From: a virus
Lineage: Duplodnaviria > Heunggongvirae > Uroviricota > Caudoviricetes
Virus record (IMG/VR): IMGVR_UViG_2541047753_000005
Direction: 5' to 3' (one strand)
DNA length: 20,031 nt
Part shown: positions 1 through 18,712 of the stretch, piece by piece
How the letters are laid out: every line of letters begins with the position of its first letter
How positions within the stretch are numbered: position 1 is the first letter of the stretch
The notes under the pieces: generated by a model
The model's input: only the letters and a program-made list of their open reading frames with translations
Told to the model about the DNA's origin: nothing
Databases searched by the model: none
Translations under genes and position numbers: made by a program

Positions 1-1260
1 ATGCCAAAACTCACAGATATGCAGATCCGCGCATGGATAAAGGCGGGAGACAGATTTGATGGCAAGGCAGACGGCAACGGCCTTTATATTTGCTACCCAA
101 AAAACTACACAGTCCCGTTCTGGCGATTCCGCTATAAGCTCGCAGGAAAGCAGCGGGCTATGGTTATAGGCTCTTACTCCGAACTGTCACTATCAAAAGC
201 CAGAGAAACAGCAAAAGAGCTGTCAGCCAGAGTTGCTCTTGGCTATGACGTAGCAGCAGAGAAACAGGAACGAAAAGCTGAAGCACTGGCAAAAATGGAG
301 GCTGAGAAAAACGCCATGCGCGTTTCAGATCTGGCCGCCGAATACTTCGAGCGCCAGATACTTCCAAGATGGAAACATCCCGATATCCTTCGCCGGAGAA
401 TTGATAAGGATATTAACCCCTGCATTGGGCATATGAAGGTGGAGGACGTTAAGCCACGCCACATTGACGACATGTTGAAAGGTATCGTTGACCGAGGAGC
501 ACCAACGATAGCAACAGATGTATTACGCTGGACACGCCGTATCTTTGACTATGGGATAAAACGCCACGCTCTGGAGATAAACCCTTGTTCAGCGTTTGAA
601 GTATCTGATGCTGGTGGTAAAGAGGTTTCCCGCGACCGTTGGCTAACTCGCGATGAGCTTATCAGGCTATTCGAGGCTATGCGCACCGCAAAAGGATTCA
701 GCCGCCAGAACGAACTGACATTTAAGCTATTGCTGGCACTATGCGTTCGTAAGATGGAGTTATGCGCCGCACGATGGGAAGAGTTTGATTTAGATGGTGC
801 GGTATGGCATTTGCCGGAAGAACGCAGCAAAAACGGAGACCCTATTGATATACCTCTACCTTCCCCAGCCGTTGAATGGTTGAGAGAGCTACACACCTTT
901 TCATGTAATAGCGCATGGGTGCTTCCAGCCAGGAAGATGCAAAACAGAATGATCCCACATATTCAGGAAAGCACTTTGCCCGTAGCACTGGCTAAGGTTC
1001 GCGCCGAAATACCGGATGTGCCTAATTTCACGATTCACGACTTCCGACGCACCGCACGTACTCATTTAGCAGCGTTGGGTGTTGATCCTGTCGTGGCGGA
1101 ACGATGCCTCAATCATCGTATTAAGGGCGTAGAGGGGATTTATAACCGCCATCAGTATTTTGATGAGCGTAAAGCAGCACTGGCACAGTGGGCTGATCTG
1201 CTGGTGGCACTGGAAAGCGGAAAAGACCACAACGTAACGCCTCTCAGAAGGGCGAACTAA
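1..1260 (+). CDS. int: P4-family tyrosine integrase
   Basis: 419-aa ORF beginning exactly at window nt 1. C-terminal HDFRRT ... GIYNRHQY (His-x-x-Arg box and catalytic Tyr) and N-terminal LTD / DGNGLY / WRFRY segments are typical of P4-type integrases. The attachment site (normally a tRNA 3' end just upstream) is outside the window. Confidence 0.9.
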   Translation: MPKLTDMQIRAWIKAGDRFDGKADGNGLYICYPKNYTVPFWRFRYKLAGKQRAMVIGSYSELSLSKARETAKELSARVALGYDVAAEKQERKAEALAKMEAEKNAMRVSDLAAEYFERQILPRWKHPDILRRRIDKDINPCIGHMKVEDVKPRHIDDMLKGIVDRGAPTIATDVLRWTRRIFDYGIKRHALEINPCSAFEVSDAGGKEVSRDRWLTRDELIRLFEAMRTAKGFSRQNELTFKLLLALCVRKMELCAARWEEFDLDGAVWHLPEERSKNGDPIDIPLPSPAVEWLRELHTFSCNSAWVLPARKMQNRMIPHIQESTLPVALAKVRAEIPDVPNFTIHDFRRTARTHLAALGVDPVVAERCLNHRIKGVEGIYNRHQYFDERKAALAQWADLLVALESGKDHNVTPLRRAN

Positions 1261-1355
1261 CTGAATAGATTGAGCCTAGCTCGACGGGGCGAAAAGCGGG
1301 AAGCCTTACCGCCTGGCTCAATCACAAAATAAGGCGCAGCGTAAAAGGTGACGCA

Positions 1356-2201
1356 ATGAAAAAACTACCACCAAATCTCTTTTTCCGACTTAATAGAGCA
1401 GCAAATTTATTAGAAATAGAAGTCGATGATCTTCTACTTATGGGAGTATCAGGCTCTATATTTTTGAGCACAATAATTCACCAGTATGAAGGTGTACTCT
1501 ATCAAGCGGGAAACTTGCCACCAGACCACGGCAGCAAAGACATAGAAAACTTATTATTTGGTTCTATTATTTCTACTAGAGAAGATACCGAAAGATATCT
1601 AAATGAAGGTGTTTTCGATGGTATGAAGTGCTTAGCAAGTGGATTATGGCACGTTCCTAGTGATTTCATTGCTTCCCTTGCAGGGGTTAAGAGAGCCCCT
1701 GACATTCCACTCATATTCTCACCAGCATATATAAAAAAAGAACTAGATATCACATCAGGACGTTACTTTTTCTACGATTTTCGCGAACATGATACCACCG
1801 TATCGTCTGTGGAAGATTTGTATATATCAAGACCGTGGGTTGAATATATAGCTGAAAGCATGGATAAAAATCAGCCAATACCCAGCATACTCCATTTGGG
1901 TTCACACGATCTTTATGAAAAGGAATTTAAAAACATAGAGCATGGAAATAGAGCACGACATAGCCTGAACCGTGAGAATAGCATTATGGCGTTGATTTAT
2001 GTGAAACGGCACTATCCGGAAGAGTGCAAAGGGAAAAACGGGAAAGAAACCAACGAAGCGTGGGCAAACGCTACGATAGACCACTGGCCACATGTGGGTG
2101 GCGATTATGATGAACCATCTACAGATTATTTAAAGAAGATCATATCTGACATGGACAGATTGCCGGAAAAACGTACCACGGCAGGAAAGAAGAAATCATG
2201 A
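1356..2201 (+). CDS. hypothetical protein, AT-rich orphan cargo gene between int and alpA
   Basis: 281-aa ORF with AAGGTG Shine-Dalgarno about 5 nt before the ATG. Visibly AT-richer than flanking int and alpA. No motif I can assign to a family. Confidence 0.7.
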   Translation: MKKLPPNLFFRLNRAANLLEIEVDDLLLMGVSGSIFLSTIIHQYEGVLYQAGNLPPDHGSKDIENLLFGSIISTREDTERYLNEGVFDGMKCLASGLWHVPSDFIASLAGVKRAPDIPLIFSPAYIKKELDITSGRYFFYDFREHDTTVSSVEDLYISRPWVEYIAESMDKNQPIPSILHLGSHDLYEKEFKNIEHGNRARHSLNRENSIMALIYVKRHYPEECKGKNGKETNEAWANATIDHWPHVGGDYDEPSTDYLKKIISDMDRLPEKRTTAGKKKS

Positions 2202-2313
2202 TAATAAAATTTAGTATCGTGACAATAAAATTTACTGTAATTCACTTTTGAGCATGCACACCATTAAATACCCGTAACGAAGCAACAACTATCGCTAAGA
2301 GGTTACGGGAAGC

Positions 2314-2517
2314 ATGAACACCGACACGATTCCTACAAAAGGCTATATCAGACGCTTTCGCCTGGCTGAATTGCTGGGCGTTAGTGTATCCACCATCGAC
2401 CGTAAAGTAAGAAACGGTTCACTACCACGTCCGGTAAAGCTGGGAGAAAAAATAACTGCGTTTGATGCGGTTGAGATTCACAACTGGCTGGCAGAACGCC
2501 GCGGGAAGGTGGCCTGA
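2314..2517 (+). CDS. alpA: AlpA/Vis-family helix-turn-helix prophage regulator (excisionase-like)
   Basis: 67-aa ORF; HTH-like segment RLAELLGVSVSTIDRKVRNGSLPRPVKLG with C-terminal W/acidic tail typical of AlpA-family proteins. The int-X-alpA order matches CP4-57-like islands. Confidence 0.8.
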   Translation: MNTDTIPTKGYIRRFRLAELLGVSVSTIDRKVRNGSLPRPVKLGEKITAFDAVEIHNWLAERRGKVA

Positions 2518-2948: not shown

Positions 2949-2960
2949 CGGAGACTGAAA

Positions 2961-3794
2961 ATGAACATCGAAAAAAGCAGATTAATTTCTGAGGCCGCCC
3001 CTCATCTGAACGCCTCTCTGGGCACAATTAACGGTAATGAATTTGCCGCAATTGTCCCAGTTATTCCTGGTCACATCGGTGGGCGTGAAACCAATATTGT
3101 TAGCGCAAAAGCGTTACACAAAGCGTTGGGCGTGGGAAAAGACTTCTCTACATGGATCACTGATCGCATCTCTGAATATGACTTCACCATTGGGCACGAT
3201 TACTCAGTCCATAAAACAATTTCCCCAAATTTGGGGAAAAGCCCGAATGGCGCGGCTTACAGCAAGATTAAGCAGTCTGGCAGACCCGGCAAAGACTATC
3301 TGTTAAGTGTCGGAATGGCGAAAGAACTGGCAATGATCGAACGCAATGATCAGGGTCGCGCTATCCGTCGTTATTTCATCCAGTGCGAGGAAGAATTACA
3401 GCGTAGCGTGCCTGAAATCGCCGCCCGCTATCGTCGCCAGCTAAAAGCCCGTATCAGTGCCGCAAACAACTTTAAGCCAATGTGCGATGCGCTGAATATG
3501 GCCCGTGCCGAGCAGGGGAAAACGACGCAGCAACACCACTACACAAACGAGAGCAATATGATTTCTCGTATCGTTCTTGGAGGGCTAACTGCTAAGCAGT
3601 GGGCGCGGATAAATGGCTATTCTGGCGAACCTCGCGACCATATGAACGCAGAACAGCTTGAGCACCTCTCATATCTCGAAAGCACCAATATCACGTTAAT
3701 TGATATGGGCATGGAATATGAGCAGCGCAAAGGAGAACTCACCCGCCTGTCGCAACGCTGGCTCGCCAAGCGTCTGGAGGCGGTCCATGTTTAA
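2961..3794 (+). CDS. phage antirepressor-like protein (AntA-like N-terminal domain plus KilAC-like C-terminal domain)
   Basis: 277-aa ORF with GGAGA Shine-Dalgarno. N-terminal segment SAKALHKALGVGKDFSTWITDRISEYDF resembles AntA/Rha-type antirepressor domains; KDYLLSVGMAKELAMIERNDQGRAIRRYFIQCEEEL resembles KilAC domains. Assignment from memory. Confidence 0.65.
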   Translation: MNIEKSRLISEAAPHLNASLGTINGNEFAAIVPVIPGHIGGRETNIVSAKALHKALGVGKDFSTWITDRISEYDFTIGHDYSVHKTISPNLGKSPNGAAYSKIKQSGRPGKDYLLSVGMAKELAMIERNDQGRAIRRYFIQCEEELQRSVPEIAARYRRQLKARISAANNFKPMCDALNMARAEQGKTTQQHHYTNESNMISRIVLGGLTAKQWARINGYSGEPRDHMNAEQLEHLSYLESTNITLIDMGMEYEQRKGELTRLSQRWLAKRLEAVHV

Positions 3795-3969
3795 GCCGAC
3801 AGGAACACCACAACCTCAAAAACGCTACAAAGATGCCCACGGAGCACTCGTTACTGTCGAAAGCGTGTCTCACAACCGAGTGACGTTTTATCGCGACGGG
3901 TATCAATCGCCATGCGTACAACCGCTGGCGCGCTTCATGAAGGAGTTCGCGGAGGTTAACAAATGCTAA
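3787..3969 (+). CDS. small hypothetical protein (60 aa)
   Basis: ATG at 3787 is preceded by GGAGG at about 6 nt and overlaps the antirepressor stop (ATGTTTAA); its own stop overlaps the next ATG (ATGCTAA). Confidence 0.55.
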   Translation: MFKPTGTPQPQKRYKDAHGALVTVESVSHNRVTFYRDGYQSPCVQPLARFMKEFAEVNKC

Positions 3970-5030
3970 CCGTCCAGAAGAAGATATTTTCACTGGCTGG
4001 TATGTCGCCAAAATCCAGCAATATAACAGCAAAGTCTGGCATTAATACAGCAGATACAAGCAAAGTTTATCATTTTCTGGTGGTAGGAGCGGATGCCTTA
4101 ACTATGTCAGAAATTACGGTCGATAGTGTTAGCGTTGAGAAGGTCGGCGGCTGCGCCAGAGAATTTCTGGTCGTAGATGGCTTTCTCTGCTCGCGTAGTG
4201 ACTCCACAAAAACCTTCGTCCACACGCGCGACGTTAACGAAATGAGCGCGATGTATTGTGCATCTGGTGCTTCCAATAGTGAGTTTTCGGAGTCCATAAA
4301 AAAGAGCTTGCCGTTATGCGGCAACACGGTTTATGGTTATAAGGCACCTCATAAAACGGGTGCCGGGATTGGCGTCCTGGTAAATCGAATGGCGACATAT
4401 GACGCGCCGAGCGTCTTTTTTTATGTCGTAGGTCTGACTCACCCATTTTTTGGGCGTTGGTGTATAATCCAGCGCCTTTGTCAATCAATGGTGGCTCAGG
4501 CAGGGGCTTCTTCGGAAGCGCCGGTATCCATTCGAGCCGGTTACGCCAACCCTGTCTGGGCTACCACCAGCGAAATTGGCGTTTCCGGTGGTAGCGTTAC
4601 ATGCTATCGAATGGAGGCTGCCACATGCTGGCTACTACCCCTACCCAAAAACCGCAATTTATCTGGATTATCGCCGCAGTTCGCCGCGATTGCCCGACAA
4701 TTACCGCCAAAATTCATCATATTGCTGCCGAGTCTGAACGCGATGCTCGCCGTTCTCTGGTGCGCGATCACGTCTGCTTTTTTGCTGGTCGTATCCGCAT
4801 GGAGGTGGCACATGATTAAAACCTACGATGTGCATATGGATCCCCTCGAACGCACAAGCCAGATCATCACACTGACAGAAGTGATTAACGACATTCTGGT
4901 GAGCAACTCTCCCTCACGAGACGAAAGACTGAAGGCGTTACTCGCGATATTGGATCTCGCCGTTCGTGACGTTCATTTCCTGCTGGAAGGTGGCGAAATG
5001 CCAGGAAAAACGGGGGCAACCAATGAATAA
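3963..5030 (+). CDS. hypothetical protein; extent uncertain (may be a shorter 5' gene plus untranslated leader plus a separate 72-aa gene at 4813..5030)
   Basis: ATG at 3963 has GGAGG about 7 nt upstream and is coupled to the preceding gene, so a real gene starts here. A 355-codon open frame is very unlikely by chance at this base composition. However the central part is compositionally odd, contains an extended -10 (TGTATAAT, 4461-4468) and stable hairpins, and the in-frame ATG at 4813 has its own strong GGAGGTGG Shine-Dalgarno. Confidence 0.35.
4461..4468 (+). promoter_or_regulatory. candidate extended -10 promoter element (TGTATAAT) ahead of the small-gene/primase operon
   Basis: Perfect TGnTATAAT at 4461-4468 with no convincing -35; preceded by a short GC hairpin plus T7 run (4401-4422). 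Position is analogous to the early promoter driving the primase operon in P4-type elements. Confidence 0.35.
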
Positions 5031-5217
5031 CTCAATTAATGCCCCTCGACTTACGTCCGCACTTCAATTAATCGAGCAAGCAGCGGCTGTCCTGGTTGCT
5101 GTCAGTCTTTCGGCTGAAGAAATGGACGCTGCTGATGTCGTGGATGCGATTAAAGCGTGCTCATCTTTGGTTAACGATGCCCGTGCAGAGCTGGTAATTC
5201 TTGGGGGTGAAAAATGA
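5023..5217 (+). CDS. small hypothetical protein (64 aa)
   Basis: ATG overlaps the upstream stop (ATGAATAA); reading frame uninterrupted; belongs to a chain of stop/start-overlapping genes leading to the primase. Confidence 0.6.
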   Translation: MNNSINAPRLTSALQLIEQAAAVLVAVSLSAEEMDAADVVDAIKACSSLVNDARAELVILGGEK

Positions 5218-5477
5218 ATATCAACTTAATTTATCGTCATCCGTGTGAGCTGGAAATTGAATCATTGCTGAGTCGTGAAGAGCTATATCCAGACACATTC
5301 ACTCTTGCAGATCGCACGACTGAACGGCTTACCAGAGCGCGCACAGGTCTGGTTCATGTGATGAATGAGATTCTTCCATCGGTGGGAGGGGAACAGGCGA
5401 CAGTAATCAATAGCTGGCTACAAAAAGTTACCTCCCTGATAGATATCAGTTTAATCGATGCGGAGAGTGCGAAATGA
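5214..5477 (+). CDS. small hypothetical protein (87 aa)
   Basis: ATG overlaps the upstream stop (ATGA); GGGGTGA Shine-Dalgarno-like sequence upstream. Confidence 0.6.
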   Translation: MNINLIYRHPCELEIESLLSREELYPDTFTLADRTTERLTRARTGLVHVMNEILPSVGGEQATVINSWLQKVTSLIDISLIDAESAK

Positions 5478-5695
5478 CCAACATCCAGCTCATTGAAGCG
5501 CAATGTCGCATCGAACAGGTTCAGACTGTTTTAGGGTTCTGGCTTGAAGGGGCCAGCCCCAGCAACAGAGACAAGTTAATGATTGGCGCGGTTATGTCAC
5601 TGCTCAATGGCGTACCAGAAGCTATTCAGGAAGCAGACGAATTGTTGGGCAAATATGAGTTACAGAATCATTCAGGCGAGGCGAAACATGAATAA
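5474..5695 (+). CDS. small hypothetical protein (73 aa)
   Basis: ATG overlaps the upstream stop (ATGA); GGAGAG upstream. Confidence 0.6.
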   Translation: MTNIQLIEAQCRIEQVQTVLGFWLEGASPSNRDKLMIGAVMSLLNGVPEAIQEADELLGKYELQNHSGEAKHE

Positions 5696-6290
5696 TTTCT
5701 TAACCTTCCATGCAGAAGCAACGCCTGACGGCGTAAACATCATGCACCGCAGCAACGATGGCATGACAGAACGCGTTGAGACCGTTTCATATATTGATGC
5801 CGTAAATCGTCTGGATGCCGGGGATTATGACGATAAACCAGATGAAGGTATGTCAATACATCTCGCTATTGCCGATGGCGGCAACCAGGGATATTTCGAT
5901 TACACATCACAGCATAACGTCATTATGTGGAGATGGCTGATCGCAACAGTATTCATGCTGGAAATGAGAGAGGAAAACGGCACTGTCAGCATCATTGATG
6001 ATACTGGCAATCCTTCCGAAGTGGCTGTTTATTCCAACGGCATCGTCGCCATGCCGCTGTATCCAGTAGCAGAGCGCCTCGCTATGGCAAACAACATTGA
6101 GGGCGCGATGATAGAACGTTTTGGCATCGAGTCTGGCACAGAACGCGCCATCATTTTCTACAGAGCCATGATGGATGTGGAACAAGGAGCACTGACTCCA
6201 TTTGGTCGTGAAACGCTTGCTGAACTTCACTACAGCTTTATAGCTGAACTGAATGAAAACGGCATGCCAGCGGAACCAGTGACGCACTGA
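5688..6290 (+). CDS. hypothetical protein (200 aa)
   Basis: ATG at 5688 overlaps the upstream stop (ATGAATAA); the ORF-track start at 5583 is probably too long. Acidic protein, no recognised motif. Confidence 0.65.
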   Translation: MNNFLTFHAEATPDGVNIMHRSNDGMTERVETVSYIDAVNRLDAGDYDDKPDEGMSIHLAIADGGNQGYFDYTSQHNVIMWRWLIATVFMLEMREENGTVSIIDDTGNPSEVAVYSNGIVAMPLYPVAERLAMANNIEGAMIERFGIESGTERAIIFYRAMMDVEQGALTPFGRETLAELHYSFIAELNENGMPAEPVTH

Positions 6291-6300
6291 GGATGGAGCC

Positions 6301-6642
6301 ATGATTACTAAAAATTTCCGACTGAATGCGCTGGCAAATAAGTATGCGTCGGCACTGTATAACCACATTACCTCCACCAGCGGCGGGGACTATTTCATGG
6401 TTGATGCGGACGGCGAGGCCGTCCGTGTGGAAATCGTCAATGGAATAAAAGGCGTTCGCAGCCTGATCGATAGCTACACACTGGCAGCCATGAAAGTGTT
6501 CTACCCGCAGTGGGAAACCGTGGTGATAGAGCTTCTTGATCGTTGCGTCACTAAGGACGGATTGACTGACGTCGGGCGTGAGATATGGCAAAGCATGGTT
6601 AATGACATGGGCGCAACTGTAGCGGGAGGTTCTCATGCGTGA
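6301..6642 (+). CDS. hypothetical protein (113 aa)
   Basis: GAGGATGGAG upstream of ATG; stop overlaps the next gene. Confidence 0.65.
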   Translation: MITKNFRLNALANKYASALYNHITSTSGGDYFMVDADGEAVRVEIVNGIKGVRSLIDSYTLAAMKVFYPQWETVVIELLDRCVTKDGLTDVGREIWQSMVNDMGATVAGGSHA

Positions 6643-7006
6643 AAATGCAGAAATGGCGCTTAGCTCCGCAATCGGAGAGCAGGTGGCAAAGATTGCTGGC
6701 GCTGTGTGGATTCATAACCTTCATTCTACTAGTGAAGAGAAAATGGCAATTCAGACGCCAGAGGGACGCACCATTACTACATCTCTGAAGCCGTCAGATG
6801 TTTGTGATCTGATTTGCGCATTCATGTACCCAGCAATGAGGACTGTCCACGGCGATAAGTGGAAACTTGCGACAACCGCTGAATTTGATATGTGGCTAAA
6901 CAATGATGGCATGCTGACTGATTACGGAATAACCAAGTGGCAGATGCTGGTTAGCCATATCGCAAACGCTATAGACCACGTGGGGTACGGTGATGCGAAA
7001 CATTGA
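6635..7006 (+). CDS. hypothetical protein (123 aa)
   Basis: GGGAGG 5 nt upstream of ATG; 3' end overlaps the primase start. Confidence 0.65.
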   Translation: MRENAEMALSSAIGEQVAKIAGAVWIHNLHSTSEEKMAIQTPEGRTITTSLKPSDVCDLICAFMYPAMRTVHGDKWKLATTAEFDMWLNNDGMLTDYGITKWQMLVSHIANAIDHVGYGDAKH

Positions 7007-9774: not shown

Positions 9775-9894
9775 GTTGGTTCAGTTGGTTCAGTTGGTTC
9801 AGTTGGTTCAATTTGTAAAGAGTATTGTTTTATAAGAATTTTATTCTTTTTATTGAACCAACACTGAACCAACAGCACGGTATTTTGAACCAAC
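9775..9894. repeat. iteron array / origin-like element, left copy
   Basis: Four tandem GTTGGTTCA units (9775-9810), an AT-rich spacer, then three inverted TGAACCAAC units at 9854, 9865 and 9886. Confidence 0.7.
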
Positions 9895-10213
9895 ACAATG
9901 TGACTGAATTGATGCGCACAACACCTGGCTGGCATCAGAGAGTGTTTTACGAGACTTTCGTAAAATCCTGTGTACAAGGGCGTGACGTTTTTGAAAGTGA
10001 GCACTACGAAATTTTCGTAGTTCAGAAAACAGCCCCTGAGAAGTTGTTATACCTGTTCAGCAAACCATCCGCATAGCTGATCGCGAATCAAATTACCAAT
10101 GGAGCCAGAAGCAAGGGCAGAACTGAAAAGCGCCTGCCGTGAAGAGTAATGCGACACCATAAATATAGTTTTTAGAGTCCATAAAAAACCTGTCAAAACC
10201 TGACACACAGAAC

Positions 10214-10247
10214 GATGCCACCAGCTACTGAGCGGTGGCATTTTTTT
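10214..10247 (+). terminator. intrinsic terminator
   Basis: GATGCCACC / GGTGGCAT stem with an 11-nt loop followed by a T7 run. Confidence 0.6.
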
Positions 10248-10342
10248 GTGCTATCTGTTTCATATTTTGCAATTACGATGATGAATATTGCGATTTGTGA
10301 AACTATAATAACTGTTGTTTTATACAGTTCTAAGGGGGCGTT

Positions 10343-10504
10343 ATGGCTATTTCAGTAAAGCCGGTATTGATAAGTGAGAAGCAAATGGAAGCGATAAAGA
10401 AAATTCAGGAAGAGCAGCGTAAAAAATCAGGAATTGGAGTAGCGCCAACTCTGCATGAAATTGCACGAGGGTTAATAGATAAGGCGCTGGCAGGCTGTAT
10501 GTGA
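10343..10504 (+). CDS. small protein (53 aa), possibly ribbon-helix-helix-like DNA-binding protein
   Basis: Not in the ORF track (under 60 aa). ATG at 10343 preceded by AAGGGGG about 6 nt upstream and a TATAAT at 10304-10309. Predicted short beta-strand (ISVKPVLIS) followed by two helices; fold assignment is a guess. Confidence 0.5.
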   Translation: MAISVKPVLISEKQMEAIKKIQEEQRKKSGIGVAPTLHEIARGLIDKALAGCM

Positions 10505-10520: not shown

Positions 10521-10982
10521 ATGGAACTAAAATTTATTGATAACCCTGTGCGATTACAGGCCTTTCTCAACGAGCCTGGCAATACCGAAAATATTGTTGA
10601 GCCGGGGCACACGTACTACATCAAGCCTGATGCGGTATATCTCGGTATCTACGAAGGATTGGTGCTGGCTGGCGTTCATGAAGTGCGTAACTTCTGGCAT
10701 AGCATTGTTGAATGCCATGCGGTGTACGACCCCGGATTCCGTGGTGAATATGCACTGCAAGGGCATCGATTATTCTGCAAATGGCTTCTCGAAAACTCAC
10801 CATTCCTTAACAGCATTACCATGGTTCCTGACACAACGAAATACGGACGGGCAATTATCCGTTTGCTTGGCGCTACCCGTGTTGGTCACCTTGATGATGC
10901 TTATATCAGATGTGGTAAACCCGTCGGCGTAACGCTTTATCAGTTAACTCGGCAACAATATAAGGAATTCAGCGAATGTTAA
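10521..10982 (+). CDS. hypothetical protein at the position of gene 14 in P22-type ejection-gene blocks
   Basis: 153-aa ORF; stop overlaps the start of the next gene. Assignment by position only. Confidence 0.6.
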   Translation: MELKFIDNPVRLQAFLNEPGNTENIVEPGHTYYIKPDAVYLGIYEGLVLAGVHEVRNFWHSIVECHAVYDPGFRGEYALQGHRLFCKWLLENSPFLNSITMVPDTTKYGRAIIRLLGATRVGHLDDAYIRCGKPVGVTLYQLTRQQYKEFSEC

Positions 10983-11653
10983 TTACCCATATAGCTCATA
11001 AACATCTCAATCGTGCCGTATACGAAAAAGGCGGTGATGGTGGTGCCTCTAAAGCTCAGGCGAAGGCCCAGCAGCAGGCAATTGATTTGCAGCGCGAGCA
11101 GTGGAATACGGTGATGAATAATCTCAAGCCGTATGCAGAAGTCGGATTGCCTGCTTTACAACAACTACAAGGACTGATGACTCTGGAAGGGCAGAATAAA
11201 GCCGCGAATGATTTCTTTGGTTCTGGTTTATATAAAACACAGGCAGATCAGGCCCGTTATCAGAACCTTGTCTCAGCAGAAGCTACCGGGGGGCTTGGCT
11301 CAACAGCTACCAGTAACCAGTTATCTTCCATTGCGCCCATGCTTTATAACAATTGGCTTAGTGGGCAAATGCAAAATTATGGAAACCTGCTAAATGTCGG
11401 GATGAATGCGGCATCAGGGCAGGCAACAGCAGGGCAAAACTACGCCAATAATACCGGACAACTCTTGCAGGGGCTTGGCGCTATTCGTGCAGGTCAGGCG
11501 CAGCAGCCATCCAGTCTTGCGCGTGGTATTGGTGGGGCGGCATCAGGCGCTTTAGCGGGTGCGCAACTTGGTTCCGTTGTTCCGGGTATAGGTAATGTCG
11601 CCGGGGCTATTGGTGGTGGGCTTATTGGTCTTGTTGGGGGGCTTGGATTCTAA
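10976..11653 (+). CDS. putative podovirus ejection (DNA-transfer) protein, P22 gp7-like
   Basis: 225 aa (P22 gp7 is about 229 aa as I recall). Gln/Ala/Gly-rich low-complexity protein with a Gly-zipper hydrophobic C-terminus (GALAGAQLGSVVPGIGNVAGAIGGGLIGLVGGLGF). Start overlaps the upstream stop. Homology inferred from size, order and composition, not from a search. Confidence 0.5.
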   Translation: MLITHIAHKHLNRAVYEKGGDGGASKAQAKAQQQAIDLQREQWNTVMNNLKPYAEVGLPALQQLQGLMTLEGQNKAANDFFGSGLYKTQADQARYQNLVSAEATGGLGSTATSNQLSSIAPMLYNNWLSGQMQNYGNLLNVGMNAASGQATAGQNYANNTGQLLQGLGAIRAGQAQQPSSLARGIGGAASGALAGAQLGSVVPGIGNVAGAIGGGLIGLVGGLGF

Positions 11654-13074
11654 TGGCGACATGGCAACTTGGCGGGCTGCCTAGCATGGTACCGCAAAAT
11701 GATAATGCTCCTCGTTCTTCCGTTCCTCAGCCTGTGCAGTTTCAGCAGCAGCCAAACGTAGGTTTAATGGCGCTACAGGGGCTAAGAGGCGTTGCTGAGA
11801 TTAATCAGCAGGCACGTCAACAACAGCGTAAAGCAGAGTTTCAGAAAGCATATGCCGGGGCTTTTGAGTCTGGAGACAGAAACAAAATGCGCAGTCTTAT
11901 TTCTGAGTATCCAGAAGAATTTGAAAGCGTTCAGAAAGGGATGGGCTTTATTGATGACGACCAGAGAAATTCTATTGGTCATCTTGCGACTAGTGCTCAA
12001 ATCGCATCTTCGCTCGGAACTGGGGCATTTGGAAAATTCATAGCAGATAACGAAGATGAAATGCGTCGCTTGGGAATTTCTCCTGAGTCTGTTGCCGAAA
12101 TGCATGTTAATGATCCACAGGAATTCCAGCGGCTTGCTGGTAGTATGGCACTGTTTTCTCTCGGTCATGAGAAGTACTTCGATATCAAAGATCGAATGGA
12201 AGGTCGGGATATTGAGCGTGGCAAGTTGGCAGAGACAATCCGCAGCAATCAGGCTGGAGAGGCGCTTCAGGCGAGAGGGCAGGATATTAGCCGAGCAAAT
12301 GCGTTAACGTCAGCATATGCACCAACAGCCGCAATGCAGAATTACAATCAGTACGCGCAAATGTTAAAGGCGGATCCAGAGGGGGCAGCGGCATTTGCGG
12401 CAGCGGCTGGAATTAATACAAACGCCAAAAAATTAATGAGTGTTAGGGAAAACGATGATGGCACTGTCACAAAATACTACACAGACGGAAGTGAAGAGCA
12501 GGGAAAACTAAACCAGCCAATATCTGGAGATGGGTTTCGTCCAATAGCTTTGCCAACAGCCCAAAAGATCATGGAAAAGTCGCCAGAAGGGGCTAAAAAA
12601 GCTGCTGGATTTGCATACAGAGTTAGGGATGCTCTTGATTCAATGGATACACTGAAAGGCCAGCTTAGCCCACAGCGAGTGGCGATCATTAATAATGCTT
12701 TGGGTAATGGGACGCTGGCTAACTTAACGCTCAGCCCAACAGAGCAGCAATACGTTGTTAATGCTAATGACGCAATAATGGCAATACTCCGTCAGGAAAC
12801 AGGGGCAGCTATCGTACCTGCTGAAATGTCAAAATATTATCAAATGTATTTCCCTCAGCCTGGCGACTCCACAAAAACCATTGATACCAAGCGCCGGAAG
12901 ATGGAAAACCAGTTCAATTCGCTGAAAGCTGCTTCTGGTCGAGCTTATGATGCTTTGCGTGTTATTTCAGCAGTTGACAGAGGAACTTCTTCTTCGTCGC
13001 AGACATTGCCGCAATCTGAGCAGGTATCACAGCCAGCAGCCAGCAGTAATTTTTCTTCACTATGGGGTGATTAA
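11653..13074 (+). CDS. putative podovirus ejection (DNA-transfer) protein, P22 gp20-like
   Basis: 473 aa (P22 gp20 is about 471 aa as I recall); TAATG stop/start overlap with the preceding gene; Gln-rich N-terminus. Confidence 0.5.
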   Translation: MATWQLGGLPSMVPQNDNAPRSSVPQPVQFQQQPNVGLMALQGLRGVAEINQQARQQQRKAEFQKAYAGAFESGDRNKMRSLISEYPEEFESVQKGMGFIDDDQRNSIGHLATSAQIASSLGTGAFGKFIADNEDEMRRLGISPESVAEMHVNDPQEFQRLAGSMALFSLGHEKYFDIKDRMEGRDIERGKLAETIRSNQAGEALQARGQDISRANALTSAYAPTAAMQNYNQYAQMLKADPEGAAAFAAAAGINTNAKKLMSVRENDDGTVTKYYTDGSEEQGKLNQPISGDGFRPIALPTAQKIMEKSPEGAKKAAGFAYRVRDALDSMDTLKGQLSPQRVAIINNALGNGTLANLTLSPTEQQYVVNANDAIMAILRQETGAAIVPAEMSKYYQMYFPQPGDSTKTIDTKRRKMENQFNSLKAASGRAYDALRVISAVDRGTSSSSQTLPQSEQVSQPAASSNFSSLWGD

Positions 13075-15179
13075 TGGCTAAAGCATGGAAAGATGTTATC
13101 GCCTCTCCACAGTATCAGGCGTTAGCACCAGAACAAAAAGTGCAGGCTCAGGAGCAATACTTCAATGAAGTCGTGGCCCCGCAAGCCGGAGAAAGTGTAG
13201 AGCAGGCTAAGCAGGCTTTTTATGCTGCCTATCCACTACCATCTACGAATGAAATAGACCGCTCCCAATCAGCAACTCAAAATATTCAACATACATCATC
13301 TGATAATTCTCTTGCGTCAGGGTATGCAAAGTTAGCTACTCAGCAAAGAGAGGGGCTTGAGCGTTCAGCAGAACAGGGAGCCAGTCTTGGGACTGCGATG
13401 CGCGATGCTATAACAGGCGAAAGCCGAATGACTCCAGAGATGGAGAGACTGCAAAATGTCGCCTCTGCCCCAGAATTGAACTCACTAAGCATGGATGCCC
13501 TGAAGGCTGGATGGTCTCAACTTTTCGGCTCTGACGCGTCTCAGGAAAAGATTCTTCAGGGCATGGGGGCGACATTAAGGCAGGATGAGAAGGGGAATAC
13601 TATCGTTTCTCTGCCATCAGGTGATTATGCCCTGAACAAGCCGGGTTTATCACCGCAAGACCTGACTTCGTTTCTGGCTAATGCGCTGGCGTTTACACCA
13701 GCGGGCAGGGCTGGAACGGTGCTTGGTGCCATAGGAAAATCAGCAGCTACAGATTTAGCACTACAGGGAGCCACCAGCAAGGCTGGTGGAGAAGATATTG
13801 ATCCGTTACAAACGGTAATTTCTGCTGGCATTGGTGGTATTGGTAAGGGGCTGGAAAATACAGCGAGTGCGGTTTCGAGGGCTGTTCGTGGTGATATGTC
13901 GCCTGAAGCAAAGGCTGCTGTCGACTTTGCATCGGAAAGAAATCTGCCGTTAATGACCAGTGACATGCTGAAAGATAAAACCTTTATGCAGAGTCAGGCT
14001 CAGACATTAGGCAAAAGAGTTCCTTTTTTTGGAACCGGTAAGAATCGGCTGAATCAACAACAAGCACGAGAAAATTTAGTCAGAACATTTAGCGATGGTC
14101 TGGGTGGCATTTCTGATAAACAGCTTTATGAATCTGCGACTAAAGGGCAACAAAAATTCATTGAGGCAGCAGGAAAGCGATATAACCGCATAATTGACGC
14201 TATGGGGGATACCCCTGTCGATCTCTCAAACACGGTAAAAACTATCGACAATCAGATTGCCGTGTTAAGCCGCCCTGGCAAATCTCAGGATAGAGCCGCG
14301 GTAAAAGTCTTGCAGCAATTTAAAGACGATATCACCAGCGGACCAAATGACCTGCGTCTGGCGAGGGAAAACAGAACCGATCTTCGAAAGCGATTTATAG
14401 CGTCATCTGACACTGTTGATAAAGATACGCTCCAGAAAGCCAGCGATATTATCTACAAGGCATATACGGCGGATATGAAAAAAGCCGTAGCCAAAAATCT
14501 TGGAGCAGACGAAGCCATTAATATGGCAAGGGTTGATCGCTCATGGTCTAAATTCAATGACATGATGGGAAGAACGCGCGTTCAAAAGGCAATAGCCAGC
14601 GGCAAGGCCACGCCTGAGGATGTAACAAAACTCGTTTTTAGCCAAAGCCCATCAGAACGTTCTCAGCTTTACAGGCTTCTGGATGACAATGGTAGGCAAA
14701 ACGCACGAGCAGCTATAGTTCAGAATGCTGTAGATAAGGCGACTGATCCGTCTGGAAATATCAGTGTTGAGAAGTTTATTAATGCGTTACACCGGAACAG
14801 GAAGCAATCAGCAACTTTCTTTAAAGGCGTACATGGAAAGGAACTGGACGGCGTTATTAAATACCTCAACGATACAAGACACGCGGCAAAAGCGAACGTT
14901 CAAAACTTAAATGGTCAGCAGCTTTATGGATTGTTAGTTGGTGGTGGCATCATAAACGCAGCAGTATTGGCGGGGATGCTAAAAACGGCTGCGTTTGTTG
15001 TTCCTGCTGCTGGTGCCGTAGGCGGAGCAGCGAAGGCATACGAAAGCCCTGTTATACGAAATGCCTTGTTACGTCTGGCAAATACGCCAAAAGGTAGCAC
15101 AGCATATGACAGAGCGATCAGTACGGTCACACAATCGCTCACCAGAGTCGCACAGGCATCACAAAAAGAAGCTCAATAA
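13074..15179 (+). CDS. putative podovirus ejection (DNA-transfer) protein, P22 gp16-like
   Basis: 701 aa; TAATG overlap with the preceding gene; low-complexity Ala/Gln/Gly-rich protein with a hydrophobic Gly/Ala-rich segment near the C-terminus (LYGLLVGGGIINAAVLAGMLKTAAFVVPAAGAVGGAAKA). Third and largest gene of the block, as in P22. Confidence 0.5.
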   Translation: MAKAWKDVIASPQYQALAPEQKVQAQEQYFNEVVAPQAGESVEQAKQAFYAAYPLPSTNEIDRSQSATQNIQHTSSDNSLASGYAKLATQQREGLERSAEQGASLGTAMRDAITGESRMTPEMERLQNVASAPELNSLSMDALKAGWSQLFGSDASQEKILQGMGATLRQDEKGNTIVSLPSGDYALNKPGLSPQDLTSFLANALAFTPAGRAGTVLGAIGKSAATDLALQGATSKAGGEDIDPLQTVISAGIGGIGKGLENTASAVSRAVRGDMSPEAKAAVDFASERNLPLMTSDMLKDKTFMQSQAQTLGKRVPFFGTGKNRLNQQQARENLVRTFSDGLGGISDKQLYESATKGQQKFIEAAGKRYNRIIDAMGDTPVDLSNTVKTIDNQIAVLSRPGKSQDRAAVKVLQQFKDDITSGPNDLRLARENRTDLRKRFIASSDTVDKDTLQKASDIIYKAYTADMKKAVAKNLGADEAINMARVDRSWSKFNDMMGRTRVQKAIASGKATPEDVTKLVFSQSPSERSQLYRLLDDNGRQNARAAIVQNAVDKATDPSGNISVEKFINALHRNRKQSATFFKGVHGKELDGVIKYLNDTRHAAKANVQNLNGQQLYGLLVGGGIINAAVLAGMLKTAAFVVPAAGAVGGAAKAYESPVIRNALLRLANTPKGSTAYDRAISTVTQSLTRVAQASQKEAQ

Positions 15180-15197
15180 CTGGTTAGCCACGGATGG

Positions 15198-15674
15198 CTA
15201 ATTTTTGTTCTTTGCTCTCATCCACAGGTAAAGAAGGGCAAGAACAAGACAAAAAACAGAGAATAGATGACCTACCTCATATGGTGCGCCCAAAAAATTA
15301 GCTATTGATACGGGCAAAAAAGCTGAAGCGATCAAAATTGAAAGGCAAAAAATAAGCCCAGTAATATAGTTTATTAAATTCTTAAATGAGAAATGTTTTG
15401 CTTGATTTACGGTCTTAGCGAATGATCGCTTAACGACGGATAAAAGCAAATAGATGGCGACAGTTGCTAATGCCCCTTTCCACCAGTCTGGATATAGTTT
15501 TGCGACAATCAGACCAAGGAAAACCATGATGACAGCCTGAGCATTCACACCAACCCTCCCTTTAGCGTTGTTTAGAATGGCAATCATCATATATCCAAGA
15601 CATGGCATTTGGTACATAGCTTGGGTCGGGATTTCAAATCCGATCCCCGTTGATGGGGCCGTTACAGTGCGCAC
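15198..15674 (-). CDS. polytopic inner-membrane protein, candidate superinfection-exclusion protein (SieA-like by position)
   Basis: Convergent with the ejection operon and AT-rich. About four hydrophobic helices. The ORF-track start at 15674 is a GTG; an in-frame GTG preceded by GGGAGGG (protein then begins VNAQAVIMVF) is a more plausible start, so the 5' end is uncertain. P22 sieA occupies this position and orientation after gene 16. Confidence 0.5.
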   Translation of the reverse strand: MRTVTAPSTGIGFEIPTQAMYQMPCLGYMMIAILNNAKGRVGVNAQAVIMVFLGLIVAKLYPDWWKGALATVAIYLLLSVVKRSFAKTVNQAKHFSFKNLINYITGLIFCLSILIASAFLPVSIANFLGAPYEVGHLFSVFCLVLALLYLWMRAKNKN

Positions 15675-15766
15675 ATATCCGCTTTATGTGAAACAGGAAG
15701 ATTTTTCTGATATCACTGCCACAGCAAAACACCAATTTCGAGACAAGTACGCGTGCGAGGGGTATC

Positions 15767-15788: not shown

Positions 15789-16581
15789 ACGTCCGACCAG
15801 TATGCACACGATGGCGGGGGGATACCATAAAACTGTTCTCTACATGAGACAGAGTGGTGGTGATGTGTTGATTATCGGCGTATATGCGCACAGGACGCGC
15901 TATGACGATGTTTTATGCGGGTACACCAATCACATGTATCTGGTGTGATAAATCGCGTTACATGACCTCTCATGTTGTGCTGGTGGTTATCACGACGTTC
16001 TGAATCTGGCCTTTGCCTGGTATTTTGCGACAAGTACGCGCGCGTAGCATCGAAATAATCGGATGGCGTATGCTGCTGGTAATATGAAGACCGATAGCAT
16101 TAACCGAAAGGAGAAAGACTTCTCGATAACGGCAAGGGGGCTGAATTGCGAGGCGAGATTAAGCAACTGTCTTGAACGTAAAAATCATGGAGCAACATGA
16201 TGGTACGATTCATTCCATTCTTCGTTCTTTCTGAGCATTGCGTTCAGGCTTAGTCAAAATTAGTGTTGCGAGCGGACCTATTAGTAATTGTTGGTGCGAT
16301 GCGCCTGTTATGGATTGTTATGGTTGTGGCAGGCCTGATTAATATCCAGTATGACCACCAGCTATGAGAGGCCACCTCAGTGGTTCGCAGTTGCAGGTTT
16401 GCACTCAGGTTCGCAGGGTTTTGGCTACTTTCACGTGCGAACCTGCAGAATTGCAAAGGACAACTAAGTCCTCTGGCCAACTCCCGGTTTATGAGCGACA
16501 CAGTCCGCCTGGCGCATCGTTTTCGTCGAGTGCGCCCATCAGCTTGTCCATGGACTATCCACCACTCGATATTAAAGCTAA

Positions 16582-16767
16582 TCATTGGTTGCCAGCCCGC
16601 GAATCAAGTTTGTTCTGGATCCAAGCTTCAACCTCCTCAAGCGACCATCTAGCTGATCTACCAATTTTAACTGGCTGTGGAAACGTGCCCGTCTTAACCC
16701 ATGAGTAGATTGCCGTTTTCTTGAAGCCCGTTCTGAGCATGACTTCGCTTAATTTGATAAGGCGCAT
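16582..16767 (-). CDS. AlpA/Vis-family helix-turn-helix regulator, second copy
   Basis: 61-aa ORF on the minus strand; LSEVMLRTGFKKTAIYSWVKTGTFPQPVKIGRSARWSLEEVEAWI is a typical AlpA-family sequence; GAGGAG Shine-Dalgarno 5 nt upstream of the ATG. Confidence 0.75.
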   Translation of the reverse strand: MRLIKLSEVMLRTGFKKTAIYSWVKTGTFPQPVKIGRSARWSLEEVEAWIQNKLDSRAGNQ

Positions 16768-17019
16768 AGAGGCTCCTCTGCTTTAGATTAAGCATAGTGA
16801 CAATCTGGCTTTGGGCGGTATCCAAAAGCGAGGTATCCATGTTGGTATCCACCAAAACGCTGTTTACCAAAAAAGTTACCACCGGAACAGGACATTTTGA
16901 GCTGTAACTTAACACATAGCATATGGAGTTCACGCATAGACTTCACGCACAACGGCTCCGGCCAGTGAAGAATCACCCTGGCTGGCAATATAATGCCGAT
17001 CACCATCAGAGGGGAATCC

Positions 17020-17211: not shown

Positions 17212-17285
17212 GCAGCACCTAACCAGCACTAGACAAGCCCTGTGCTGGTGGATGTCCCTCATAATTAGCGGTTTTTAAACGGCGT

Positions 17286-17406
17286 GTTGGTTCACGGCCT
17301 CTTTTTGTTGGTTCAAAAATGGGGTGTGTTGGTTCACATTTTGCGAATAATCCTTTTAAAAACAATACTCTTTACAAATTGAACCAACTGAACCAACTGA
17401 ACCAAC
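17286..17406. repeat. iteron array / origin-like element, right copy (reverse complement of the left copy)
   Basis: Three GTTGGTTCA units spaced 21 bp apart (17286, 17307, 17328), AT-rich spacer, three tandem TGAACCAAC units (17380-17406). 17359-17406 is an exact 48-bp inverted repeat of 9784-9831. Confidence 0.7.
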
Positions 17407-17442
17407 ACCTTTTTGCTTATCTATATAGTCTGAGAGGCAGAA

Positions 17443-17730
17443 ATGATAAGGGACAGGAAAGCTGAAGAGCTGGAGTTAAAAGGGCTATGCCGGAGAGCTG
17501 CCACACGATGGGCAGAAGTCATGACGCTGGCAGATGGCGATAAAGAACGTGAACATGCAGCAAACAGACGCTCTGAATGTATCCGTAGGGCGGCACGCCC
17601 ACCAGCAACTACAGACAGATTCGGAGACTTAAGACAGGCAGTTAAGCGAACGCATTCAGCTCTTGGTATGGATGAGGAAGCGAGAGGGTACTTCAGGCGT
17701 TATCGCGATAAAGATTGCCAGCTACGATAA
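17443..17730 (+). CDS. hypothetical protein (95 aa, Arg-rich)
   Basis: GAGAGG Shine-Dalgarno 5 nt upstream of ATG; begins just right of the iteron array; no recognised motif. Confidence 0.45.
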   Translation: MIRDRKAEELELKGLCRRAATRWAEVMTLADGDKEREHAANRRSECIRRAARPPATTDRFGDLRQAVKRTHSALGMDEEARGYFRRYRDKDCQLR

Positions 17731-17899
17731 AGCAAAGGAGGTGTCTTACTACAATGACCAAGCAAAACTGTCGTTGCTTTCGCATAGCATCAGCTAAAAG
17801 ATCAAGACACCCAACATCGCATTAATAAGTATAATCAATTTGCTTCTTTCAACATTTGCTATAGAGTTTTTGAACCTTAATGGTTTATGAGCATCTATA

Positions 17900-18664
17900 A
17901 TGACTACAACGGTATATGATCGTGTTAACGCCTTAGTAGCGACCGACTCTAGGTGGTCTGTTGATCTTAGCCCACATGGCTACGATGGTCATATCCTGTA
18001 TATTGACGACACCGGCTTCGGTAAGCTAGCTCCACGAAATGATTTTGTTATGCTTTTAGCCGGTGATGGTCTTTTGATTCAGTTATGGAAGCATTGGTGG
18101 CGAGGAGACCTATCTCAACAAGAACCACCAGTTGTTTTACCTACTGGTCAATCGGTAAATTTACATATTGTGAAAAAATCAACTAATGAAGTGATTTTTG
18201 ATAAAGGTCAAAAATTAGTTGTAAAAAATAACGAAACGGAAGAACTGTTCGCTGTCTTTACAGGCTCAGGATGCGGTGCTGCTGCGCAAAACTGGATGTA
18301 TAGCCATTGCGCAAGATCAGCAATTGAAGAATCTAAAAAGCTTGACCCATACACTGGCGGCACTGTACGTTTTTTAGACTTCAGGACTAACGCATCATTA
18401 GTAGAAGACTCTGTTTCAACCATTAGCGAAGTAAACGAAGCTCTATTGCAGAGGGGGCTGATTATGGATACCAAAAACCCACATTCACCACACGTTTCTA
18501 TCAGTGCACAAGAAGTTGCTGAAGTTCGTCAAATGCTGGTTAGTGGTTCAATTACCCCATGTGCACCAGTAGGCCAAAGAACCCAAGATTGGGATGACAA
18601 CTCCAAATTGCGTTTAGCAAATGCTATTCAGCGTATTCGTGAAGAAGAAGCACAAATGCGATAA
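17900..18664 (+). CDS. putative Ntn-hydrolase, HslV/proteasome-beta-like threonine peptidase with C-terminal extension
   Basis: 254 aa, AT-rich. N-terminus MTTTVYDRVNALVATDSRWS parallels HslV [20 protein letters not shown] (Thr directly after Met, conserved Asp); LFAVFTGSGCGAAAQNW parallels the HslV IAIGSGGPYAQAAARAL motif. No Shine-Dalgarno before the ATG. No HslU-like ATPase gene in the window. From remembered HslV sequence only. Confidence 0.5.
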   Translation: MTTTVYDRVNALVATDSRWSVDLSPHGYDGHILYIDDTGFGKLAPRNDFVMLLAGDGLLIQLWKHWWRGDLSQQEPPVVLPTGQSVNLHIVKKSTNEVIFDKGQKLVVKNNETEELFAVFTGSGCGAAAQNWMYSHCARSAIEESKKLDPYTGGTVRFLDFRTNASLVEDSVSTISEVNEALLQRGLIMDTKNPHSPHVSISAQEVAEVRQMLVSGSITPCAPVGQRTQDWDDNSKLRLANAIQRIREEEAQMR

Positions 18665-18681
18665 ATGGAATAAGTAAGCCT

Positions 18682-18712
18682 AAAAAGCTGCCTATCATAC
18701 AGGCAGCTTTTT
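18682..18712. terminator. intrinsic terminator, potentially bidirectional
   Basis: AAAAGCTGCCT / AGGCAGCTTTT stem with a 7-nt loop, A-run before and T-run after, 18 nt after the stop of the HslV-like gene. Confidence 0.65.

Follow-up and report, generated by a model that had tools for sequence, protein, structure and literature searches.

Gram-negative phage-inducible chromosomal islands (PICIs) follow a four-zone plan in which a dynamic "Late zone" captures late genes of the helper phage, and cycles of large captures followed by gene loss have been proposed for them (Tommasini et al. 2023). One of these islands, the 19,963-bp EcCIMP1 at tRNA-Thr of Escherichia coli MP1, excises only upon induction of the P22-like prophage Kapi1, as one 19,963-bp circle, requires alpA and int for excision and transfer, and adds superinfection immunity against Kapi1 (Pick, Stadel & Raivio, ISME J 2025, PMC11773190). 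Its authors found no capsid or terminase genes and left the packaging question open (PMC11773190). In the literature we found no direct description of satellites with ejection proteins besides EcCIMP1. Here, we analyze a DNA stretch of 20,031 nucleotides (nt), IMG/VR record IMGVR_UViG_2541047753_000005, referred to below as the window, whose first base is position 1 of all coordinates and which contains most of a closely related island.

We consider it near certain that this element is a PICI of the EcCIMP1 family inserted at the 3' end of yicC. Our reading of the whole is an EcCIMP1-type island of P22-like phages that is packaged by means of pac-like sequences and carries an ejection operon of its own; we give this complete chain, in which the parts assigned to the cassette and the pac-like sites are proposals, a probability of about 0.5. 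Most likely, its helpers are P22-like podophages of the CUS-3, Kapi1, or HK620 type. An initial annotation of this DNA had suggested, as one of two options, a variant class of satellite tied to P22-type helpers. The tie holds, in that the near-identical sibling EcCIMP1 excises only upon induction of P22-like Kapi1 and is transduced by this phage (PMC11773190). The variant class is an EcCIMP1-like PICI and not a new one, since EcCIMP1 has the same layout, cassette included, and the late zone was already known (Tommasini et al. 2023); the element belongs to the family described in 2025 (Pick et al.). What is new here are three testable leads: a conserved and possibly SOS-controlled operon, a family-wide slot for genome-delivery genes, and pac-like sequences derived from terS.

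The likeness to EcCIMP1 extends over the gene order from AlpA to PerC and a size of ca. 19 to 20 kb. In both islands the antirepressor, the "Ash" region, and the primase are followed by a small open reading frame (ORF) and then by gp14, gp7, gp20, and gp16. The small ORF has the same protein accession in the two, gp14 is 99% and gp7 100% identical, and the primase (dN, the nonsynonymous divergence, of 0.002) falls in the same 99 to 100% identity class. The two islands also have both iteron clusters and the LexA-type box in common, as well as the pac-like segments, the second AlpA, and PerC. In contrast, the integrases belong to a 29% identity class and serve different sites (yicC-dinD in the window, tRNA-Thr in EcCIMP1), and identity is only 33% in gp20 and 23% in gp16, the latter being a CUS-3-type protein of 701 amino acids (aa) in the window and a 906-aa protein with a transglycosylase domain in EcCIMP1. 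The gene after gp16 is also different, and the window adds a 281-aa ORF past int and an HslV-like gene at the right end.

The layout is that of Gram-negative PICIs such as EcCICFT073 and EcCIEDL933, namely int (1-1260) followed by alpA (2314-2517), both on the + strand, a Bro zone with AntA/"Ash" and immunity RNAs, a primase followed by an iteron origin, and a dynamic late zone, all in a discrete 19.16-kb island. It differs from them in lacking detected capsid-morphogenesis, Rpp/Ppi, and TerS genes, its late zone consisting of DNA-ejection proteins. Satellite P4 also has an integrase, an AlpA-like regulator, a primase-helicase, and an immunity RNA of the C4/CI type, and one relative of the window exists as a plasmid-like circle; however, the window is devoid of sid, psu, delta, and a P2-type cos, and the helper type is a headful-packaging podophage. 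P4 has two separated clusters of one iteron, ori and crr, and the two clusters of the window are similar. Thus, of the "P4/PICI-like core" annotated initially, the PICI plan stands and the likeness to P4 fails on sid, psu, delta, and cos, while the integrase, AlpA, antirepressor, and primase with iterons were all recovered (Pfam and PHROG matches; iterons at 9775-9896).

To delimit the island we compared it with the empty site of K-12. Homology ends at the yicC stop codon, which places the attL junction ca. 188 bp upstream of the window, and resumes 19.16 kb further on (position 26965 of locus L001), with only a short imperfect core overlap. By this comparison the element spans ca. -187 to 18972 (19.16 kb), past both limits of the extent assigned at first (1-18712). 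A 24-nt repeat, CGTGTACATArrGGTGTACATAAT, lies just inside both ends, as would be expected for arm-type integrase sites. A tRNA as the integration target was rejected; there is no tRNA gene in the window, and the target is the 3' end of yicC. The 20-kb window matches the chromosomes of several E. coli strains of human, dog, whale, and wastewater origin at 99.9% identity, and in strain FDAARGOS_1262 it is located between yicC and dinD. The dinD SOS box (19146-19161) lies ca. 175 bp past the right end of the island, and the dinD promoter is intact after integration. Among 5,426 complete E. coli genomes, the full element was found in 54, and the junction of primase, small ORF, and gp14 in 240 (ca. 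4%), including strains 042 and 83972; the latter, from asymptomatic bacteriuria, also has an internal stop in one small ORF. The features that define the island and its replication are as follows.

1 to 1260, + strand: tyrosine integrase (Pfam Arm-DNA-bind_3, Phage_int_M, and Phage_integrase)
2314 to 2517, + strand: AlpA (Pfam Phage_AlpA, E = 2.2e-8)
6993 to 9749, + strand: primase-helicase with Zn-ribbon, Toprim, and DUF927 domains (Pfam E = 3e-47, 2.8e-15, and 7.2e-15)
9775 to 9896, no strand: iteron cluster 1, origin-like; GTTGGTTCA four times in tandem (9775-9810), an AT-rich spacer, and three inverted copies
17286 to 17406, no strand: iteron cluster 2, the reverse-complement image of cluster 1, with spaced copies and then tandem copies
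18878 to 18901, no strand: right end of the element, with the arm-type repeat CGTGTACATAAGGGTGTACATAAT that matches the left end; attR junction at ca. 18965-18972 from the empty-site comparison

In every E. coli relative examined the two iteron clusters flank the variable late zone. Cluster 2 is kept in EcCIMP1, ECONIH5, CU39ES-1, and a 12-kb circular form in which the clusters are 1.9 kb apart. This circle, recorded as a "plasmid" of 12,152 bp from an E. coli isolate of chicken origin (NZ_CP148430.1), represents a related island, with AlpA through primase, the small ORF, a gp20 fragment, the membrane gene, PerC, and int. Its PerC is joined to int, as excision would give, which suggests that excised or plasmid-like copies occur in culture. 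Phage-like genes beside satellite-like ones, a second AlpA-like gene on the opposite strand, and a non-coding stretch at 15.7 to 17.3 kb that varies among relatives might point to two unrelated neighbors, a small satellite beside what is left of a P22-like prophage. Against this, there is a single pair of ends with matching arm-type repeats, the iterons of the primase recur past the cassette (17286-17406), the same arrangement is found with other integrases at other sites (tRNA-Thr) and in Leclercia, and EcCIMP1 excises as one 19,963-bp circle. On these grounds we rejected two tandem elements, an interpretation that we regard as highly improbable.

The late zone contains a complete P22-type ejection cassette with its own control region, as listed below.

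10224 to 10327, + strand: control region of the cassette operon (terminator hairpin, 10224-10250; dyad, 10258-10302; -10 element TATAAT, 10304-10309; LexA-type box, 10312-10327)
10343 to 10504, + strand: conserved 53-aa protein heading the "delivery" slot, with homologues in 31 of 77 genome loci and 59 of 80 IMG/VR loci
10521 to 15179, + strand: P22-type cassette with full-length gp14, gp7, gp20, and gp16
10521 to 10982, + strand: gp14 (Pfam DUF2824, E = 2.3e-61)
10976 to 11653, + strand: gp7 (Pfam P22_gp7, E = 1.9e-72)
11653 to 13074 and 13074 to 15179, + strand: gp20 and gp16 (cassette matches include Pfam Inj_translocase, E = 1.6e-58, and PHROG 770, E = 3.1e-160)
15182 to 15203: terminator hairpin after gp16
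15198 to 15674, - strand: small polytopic membrane protein at the sieA position, 19 bp after gp16 (129 aa from the RefSeq start at 15587)

The cassette has the gene order of P22 14-7-20-16, with the same orientation, family-level homology of the four proteins, and a small gene of inner membrane type on the opposite strand past 16, as sieA in P22. It differs from the P22 region in lying within a satellite, where a promoter and small ORF of its own precede it, instead of in a phage late operon, in its proteins being 23 to 56% identical to those of P22, and in the membrane protein, which is no SieA homologue. The ejection-type proteins noticed in the initial annotation are therefore present and full length. 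Strictly, its statement that virion genes are missing is incorrect, since gp7, gp20, and gp16 are structural virion proteins of P22-like phages.

Judging from the sequence, the small ORF, gp14, gp7, gp20, and gp16 constitute one operon behind a conserved promoter, because the genes overlap or abut and terminators flank them (10224-10250 and 15182-15203). In an alignment of 27 relatives from many genera, the dyad (10258-10302) and the TATAAT element (10304-10309) are conserved upstream of the small ORF. Three nucleotides past the -10 element there is a LexA-type box, CTGT-N8-ACAG, which is kept in the window and in all relatives with a P22-type cassette. Elsewhere in the window the pattern occurs only as the SOS box of dinD, against 0.2 occurrences expected by chance. 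From the box at the cassette promoter we infer that the operon is under SOS control. As for the 53-aa protein itself, profile searches of Pfam and of PDB sequences gave no meaningful match. Its AlphaFold2 monomer model shows an extended, strand-like N-terminus and two helices with a predicted local distance difference test score of 77.6, and a Foldseek search with this model returned only hits with E > 7; by the model, it is possibly a ribbon-helix-helix protein.

In the window, as in seven further four-gene elements that we examined, the cassette genes are all intact; among these elements are EcCIMP1, its Leclercia relative, CPF6 (with EcCIMP1-type alleles), PRO_A-1534, CUVET19-1993, and 30224_1#48. 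Between the E. coli and Leclercia satellite copies, the ratio of nonsynonymous to synonymous divergence (dN/dS) is 0.067 to 0.084 for all four genes, at a dS of 1.0 to 2.0 that is near saturation, and 0.03 for the small ORF. These values indicate that the cassette genes are under purifying selection. Among satellites gp14 and gp7 are constant, and gp20, gp16, and the next gene are exchanged as a block. In the window, gp16 is 90% and the membrane protein 88% identical to its counterpart in a CUS-3-like prophage whose tailspike is an endosialidase (93% identity at the DNA level across the two genes), and among sequenced phages the best match of this gp16 is that of N7 (67%). EcCIMP1 and its proven helper Kapi1 share 83% identity in gp14 and 57% in gp7; in gp20 and gp16 the values are 27% and 24%, so that the cassette is no simple copy of helper genes.

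We then looked at the position after the 53-aa ORF across the family. A primase scan with one genome per species gave 77 loci, ca. 66 of them close relatives from Enterobacterales, and a second, independent sample comprised 80 IMG/VR loci, 59 of which have the small ORF. One or more delivery-type genes directly follow the small ORF in 26 of the 31 genome loci that have it and a delivery-type protein does so in 49 of the 59 from IMG/VR, with the following contents.

Genome loci, P22-type ejection cassette: 2
Genome loci, tape measure protein, usually with a 108-aa partner: 11
Genome loci, tape measure-transglycosylase fusion: 3
Genome loci, "lytic tail protein": 3
Genome loci, podophage internal virion proteins: 5 to 6
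Genome loci, baseplate hub: 1
Genome loci, TerS-like proteins: 2; unknown: 3
IMG/VR loci, classes assigned by similarity to annotated examples, some of it weak (25% identity over ca. 495 residues): 18 tape measure, 13 lytic tail protein, 8 P22-type, 9 internal virion, and 1 hub; besides these, 4 TerS-like

In addition, a Pectobacterium locus outside the 31, with no detectable small ORF, encodes a 1425-aa fusion resembling gp20 and gp16. Over ca. 140 related satellites the slot is thus occupied mostly by genome-delivery proteins; capsid, portal, fiber, and lysis genes are essentially absent from it, which argues against random capture of late genes. Tentatively, and aware that the odds lie somewhat against so broad a statement, we propose an enterobacterial satellite family, marked by the DUF927 primase and the 53-aa ORF, that would be specialized not in capsid remodeling but in equipping the helper virion with the satellite's own genome-delivery proteins. 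The cargo would follow the helper type (P22 ejection proteins, podophage internal virion proteins, siphophage tape measure, or myophage hub), the particles could pass entry-stage exclusion of the SieA-like or tape-measure-targeting kind in helper-carrying cells, and packaging would proceed via several terS-derived pac mimics.

With regard to packaging, profile hidden Markov model searches of Pfam and PHROGs gave no match for any called ORF to the Sid, Psu, Delta, TerS, capsid, portal, or lysis families, nor to Rpp/Ppi-type or capsid-morphogenesis genes, and small proteins of unknown function remain. The set of capsid-forming PICIs (own capsid, portal, protease, connectors, and terminase) was not detected in these searches either, and tblastn with the portal, coat, and TerL of P22 was negative in related loci. 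For the P2/P4-type cos, taken as GGCGAGGCGGGGAAAGCAC, there was no match with up to three mismatches. The initial view of a satellite-type replicon with no recognizable capsid-redirection or terminase genes is thus borne out by the profile search that it had called for. We did find three kinds of DNA similarity to terS genes.

4111 to 4217, - strand: terS-derived segment of 107 nt, candidate packaging signal; 86% identity to nt 4-110 of P22 gene 3 (terS), E = 2e-33
4280 to 4304, + strand: 25-mer TGAGTTTTCGGAGTCCATAAAAAAG, identical to a stretch of CUS-3/N7-type terS; second copy with two mismatches at 10158-10179
15735 to 15757 and 16022 to 16044, + strand: two copies of the motif ATTT(T)CGnGACAAGTACGCG; degenerate third copy at 18771-18793

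The homology of the 107-nt segment starts exactly with base 1 of the 22-bp P22 pac as defined by experiment and ends 85 nt past pac. It is matched at 84 to 87% by ca. 115 terS genes of P22-like phages, with the annotated pac lying under the match. The segment is kept in EcCIMP1 and four other relatives, whose 22-mer reads GAA(G/T)GTTTTTGTGGAGTCACTA. The 25-mer may be a pac site as well, though perhaps one that is not helper specific. The third motif matches the Kapi1 terS at 18874-18892, a gene position homologous to that of the CUS-3 25-mer, and has three copies in EcCIMP1; as a packaging signal it is suggestive only. Taken as a set, these similarities suggest that the element is packaged by pac mimicry, which would be a concrete and easily tested answer to the question left open for EcCIMP1. 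They also make unrecognized small packaging proteins, one of the options considered initially, less necessary as an explanation. At the generally known headful size of P22, 19.16 kb corresponds to ca. 2.2 copies per headful, and resizing of the capsid would not be required.

The sequence of events that we envisage would start with AlpA controlling excision and with replication from the iteron origin. The helper terminase would initiate headful packaging on satellite concatemers at the pac-like DNA, with no need for a satellite terminase. Meanwhile, the SOS response would switch on the cassette operon together with helper induction, and the ejection proteins of the satellite would be loaded into helper procapsids, the DNA being injected through a conduit made of its own gp20 and gp16. 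There is experimental background for such a substitution, since complete foreign sets of ejection proteins assemble into P22 virions and function (Leavitt et al. 2024, PMC10883804). In the same system, gp16 and gp20 must be cognate, and single swaps give non-infectious P22 particles into which the foreign gp16 is still incorporated; the C-terminal parts of gp16 and gp20 are where escape from SieA, an exclusion protein of the inner membrane, was mapped, and the HK620 ejection set confers partial SieA escape (PMC10883804). As gp16 and gp20 determine the sensitivity to entry blockers such as SieA, a divergent conduit should bypass exclusion and would let the satellite enter cells that exclude the particles of the helper itself. 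The membrane protein at the sieA position would in turn provide exclusion for the host. Action at the DNA-entry stage, which had been put forward from the first inspection of the DNA, is plausible, and it gains indirect support because the operon is intact and under purifying selection and because the genome-delivery slot is family wide.

Satellites have been found to subvert capsid size and packaging specificity and, lately, tails as well; a DNA-injection machinery of their own would, if true, add the entry step. It would explain how satellites reach helper-carrying cells, the hosts that they need most and that nevertheless exclude the helper's own particles. The mobility of such islands is also relevant to gene flow in E. 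coli, both commensal and pathogenic; the PerC-like regulator of the sibling silences a virulence island.

Several observations weigh against this interpretation. One 3' truncation of gp16, with 1,816 nt retained, is common to 83972, 04-00955, and CU39ES-1, ECONIH5 has gp20 and gp16 without gp14 and gp7, and in the 12-kb circle the cassette is reduced to the gp20 fragment; given this partial loss in relatives, the cassette is dispensable for persistence. Had the cassettes been captured independently, the purifying selection seen between their copies could have taken place in phages. The spacing of the LexA-type half-sites is one base shorter in many relatives. EcCIMP1 is transduced by Kapi1 inefficiently, at ca. 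5e3 particles per ml, and the island leaves Kapi1 titers unchanged (PMC11773190). With respect to the pac-like sequences, the satellite 22-mer differs from P22 pac at 6 of 22 positions, and for a single match to the Kapi1-type motif ca. 0.3 would be expected by chance. The 25-mer is conserved across the whole satellite family and is 22 to 24 of 25 positions identical in the terS of distant Acinetobacter, Riemerella, Salmonella, and Klebsiella phages, an unusual nucleotide conservation. The family-wide conservation includes relatives with tape measure genes in the slot, which weakens the candidacy of the 25-mer as a helper-specific CUS-3 pac site.

The partial and truncated versions fit an alternative in which the cassette consists of helper late genes captured passively and recently by the late zone, decaying slowly and with no role for the satellite, the membrane gene perhaps being the only selected cargo. 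The P22 order of the four genes plus the gene at the sieA position, the 93% DNA identity of gp16 and the membrane gene to the CUS-3-like prophage, and the cycles of capture and loss of Tommasini et al. agree with it. However, a dN/dS of ca. 0.07 between copies saturated at synonymous sites is hard to reconcile with decay, as are the dedicated, conserved promoter and small ORF ahead of the cassette. Moreover, gp20/gp16 alleles are swapped while the slot is retained, and genome-delivery proteins in 83 to 84% of the occupied slots in two independent samples would be unlikely from random capture. We therefore consider passive capture unlikely.

A cassette with alleles so unlike those of the helper might also serve as a weapon. 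Satellite gp20 and gp16 (tape measure or internal virion proteins in relatives) could be co-assembled into the progeny of a phage that infects the cell or is induced in it; as gp16 and gp20 must be cognate, the mixed particles would be non-infectious and kin would be protected. Alternatively, these proteins could block incoming conduits directly. P22 particles with a single foreign gp16 or gp20 are in fact non-infectious, with the foreign gp16 incorporated, and EcCIMP1 does confer superinfection immunity against Kapi1. Tai systems cause tailless phages to be released, and in Gram-negative PICIs these and other immune systems have a known hotspot downstream of pri; in relatives, Abi genes lie beside the cassette. 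However, EcCIMP1 does not lower Kapi1 titers on induction, an SOS-repressed operon is ill suited to stop incoming DNA, ejection proteins work from the periplasmic side once out of the virion, and PADLOC gave no match. A simpler explanation of the immunity is the membrane gene at the sieA position, which is transcribed separately. An anti-phage device is thus, in our opinion, rather improbable, and we favor delivery of the satellite's own DNA as the role of the cassette.

The membrane gene is a likely candidate for an exclusion protein of the host cell. Its annotation as "SieA-like" is correct as to position, which agrees with P22. Homology to SieA was rejected, since BLASTP against the type A SieA of P22, the sole SieA compared directly, showed no similarity (E = 0.92) and the conserved SieA motif FxRYPxEAxxFNK is absent. 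A tblastn search of 50,697 phage records gave no match, and a homologue exists at the corresponding position in the CUS-3-like prophage. The gene after gp16 differs among relatives, encoding the 129-aa membrane protein (15198-15674), a 145-aa protein (L004, 16846-17283), or a 204-aa protein (L090, 12390-13004). The genes of the 129-aa protein and of the 145-aa protein begin with the same 15 codons (MIAILNNAKGRVGVN); this suggests that cassettes were exchanged behind one start and promoter.

The remaining genes and RNAs of the window are the following.

1269 to 1335, + strand: int-alpA RNA (Rfam RF02996; cmscan 60.6 bits versus a gathering score of 35.8, E = 1.3e-10)
1356 to 2201, + strand: 281-aa accessory ORF between int and alpA, in a low-GC stretch (GC 0.42-0.43)
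2961 to 3969, + strand: AntA antirepressor (2961-3794) and DUF4222 protein, Bro zone (Pfam AntA, E = 1.1e-21; DUF4222, E = 6.1e-25; PHROG anti-repressor families)
4344 to 4421, + strand: isrK small RNA (Rfam, 67.1 bits, over the gathering score)
4484 to 4571, + strand: C4 antisense RNA (Rfam, 79.5 bits, over the gathering score)
5023 to 7006, + strand: six small or medium ORFs conserved in the family and annotated in relatives too (PHROG families of unknown function only: phrog_20558, phrog_1515, and phrog_37628)
16582 to 16767, - strand: second AlpA-family gene, counterpart of EcCIMP1 alpA_1 (Pfam Phage_AlpA, E = 6.9e-13)
17443 to 17730, + strand: PerC-family regulator (Pfam PerC, E = 1.1e-30)
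17900 to 18664, + strand: accessory 254-aa protein with weak similarity to HslV-type Ntn-hydrolases (phrog_1040, E = 2.8e-13)

The AlpA gene at 2314-2517 occupies the position of EcCIMP1 alpA, the master activator of excision, needed for excision and transfer (PMC11773190). Ca. 80 bp upstream of it, at 2195-2234, there is a 21-bp tandem repeat (ATCATGAyAATAAAATTTA, twice) that could be an operator of the alpA promoter. The 281-aa ORF has no counterpart in EcCIMP1 and no match in Pfam, PHROGs, or PADLOC, and is probably an accessory or defense gene. By their Rfam matches, isrK and C4 form an immunity zone of the P1/P4 type. Both RNA genes are enclosed by an ORF that RefSeq calls "ash family protein" (355 aa, 3963-5030), with the Pfam Ash domain (aa 124-232) lying over them. 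The "ash" protein call, and perhaps part of the Pfam family too, may thus represent translated RNA genes.

At the right end, the counterpart of the second AlpA gene in EcCIMP1, alpA_1, is dispensable for the island and can replace the Kapi1 excisionase, and the EcCIMP1 PerC homologue represses LEE1 (PMC11773190). The "orphan protease" of the initial annotation is the 254-aa protein; the PHROG match to the HslV family is the sole basis for that name, Pfam and PADLOC giving no match. More broadly, ten window proteins compared with known defense systems had no PADLOC match. The HslV-like gene is present in the window and in ECONIH5 and not in EcCIMP1. Its product starts with M-T-T-T, which fits the N-terminal threonine nucleophile of hydrolases of the HslV/proteasome type. 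Lastly, ca. 95 nt at ca. 16160-16256 are 93 to 97% identical to sequences beside genes of IS110-family (RNA-guided) transposases in >2,000 E. coli genomes and may be an insertion sequence end or a target-like fragment.

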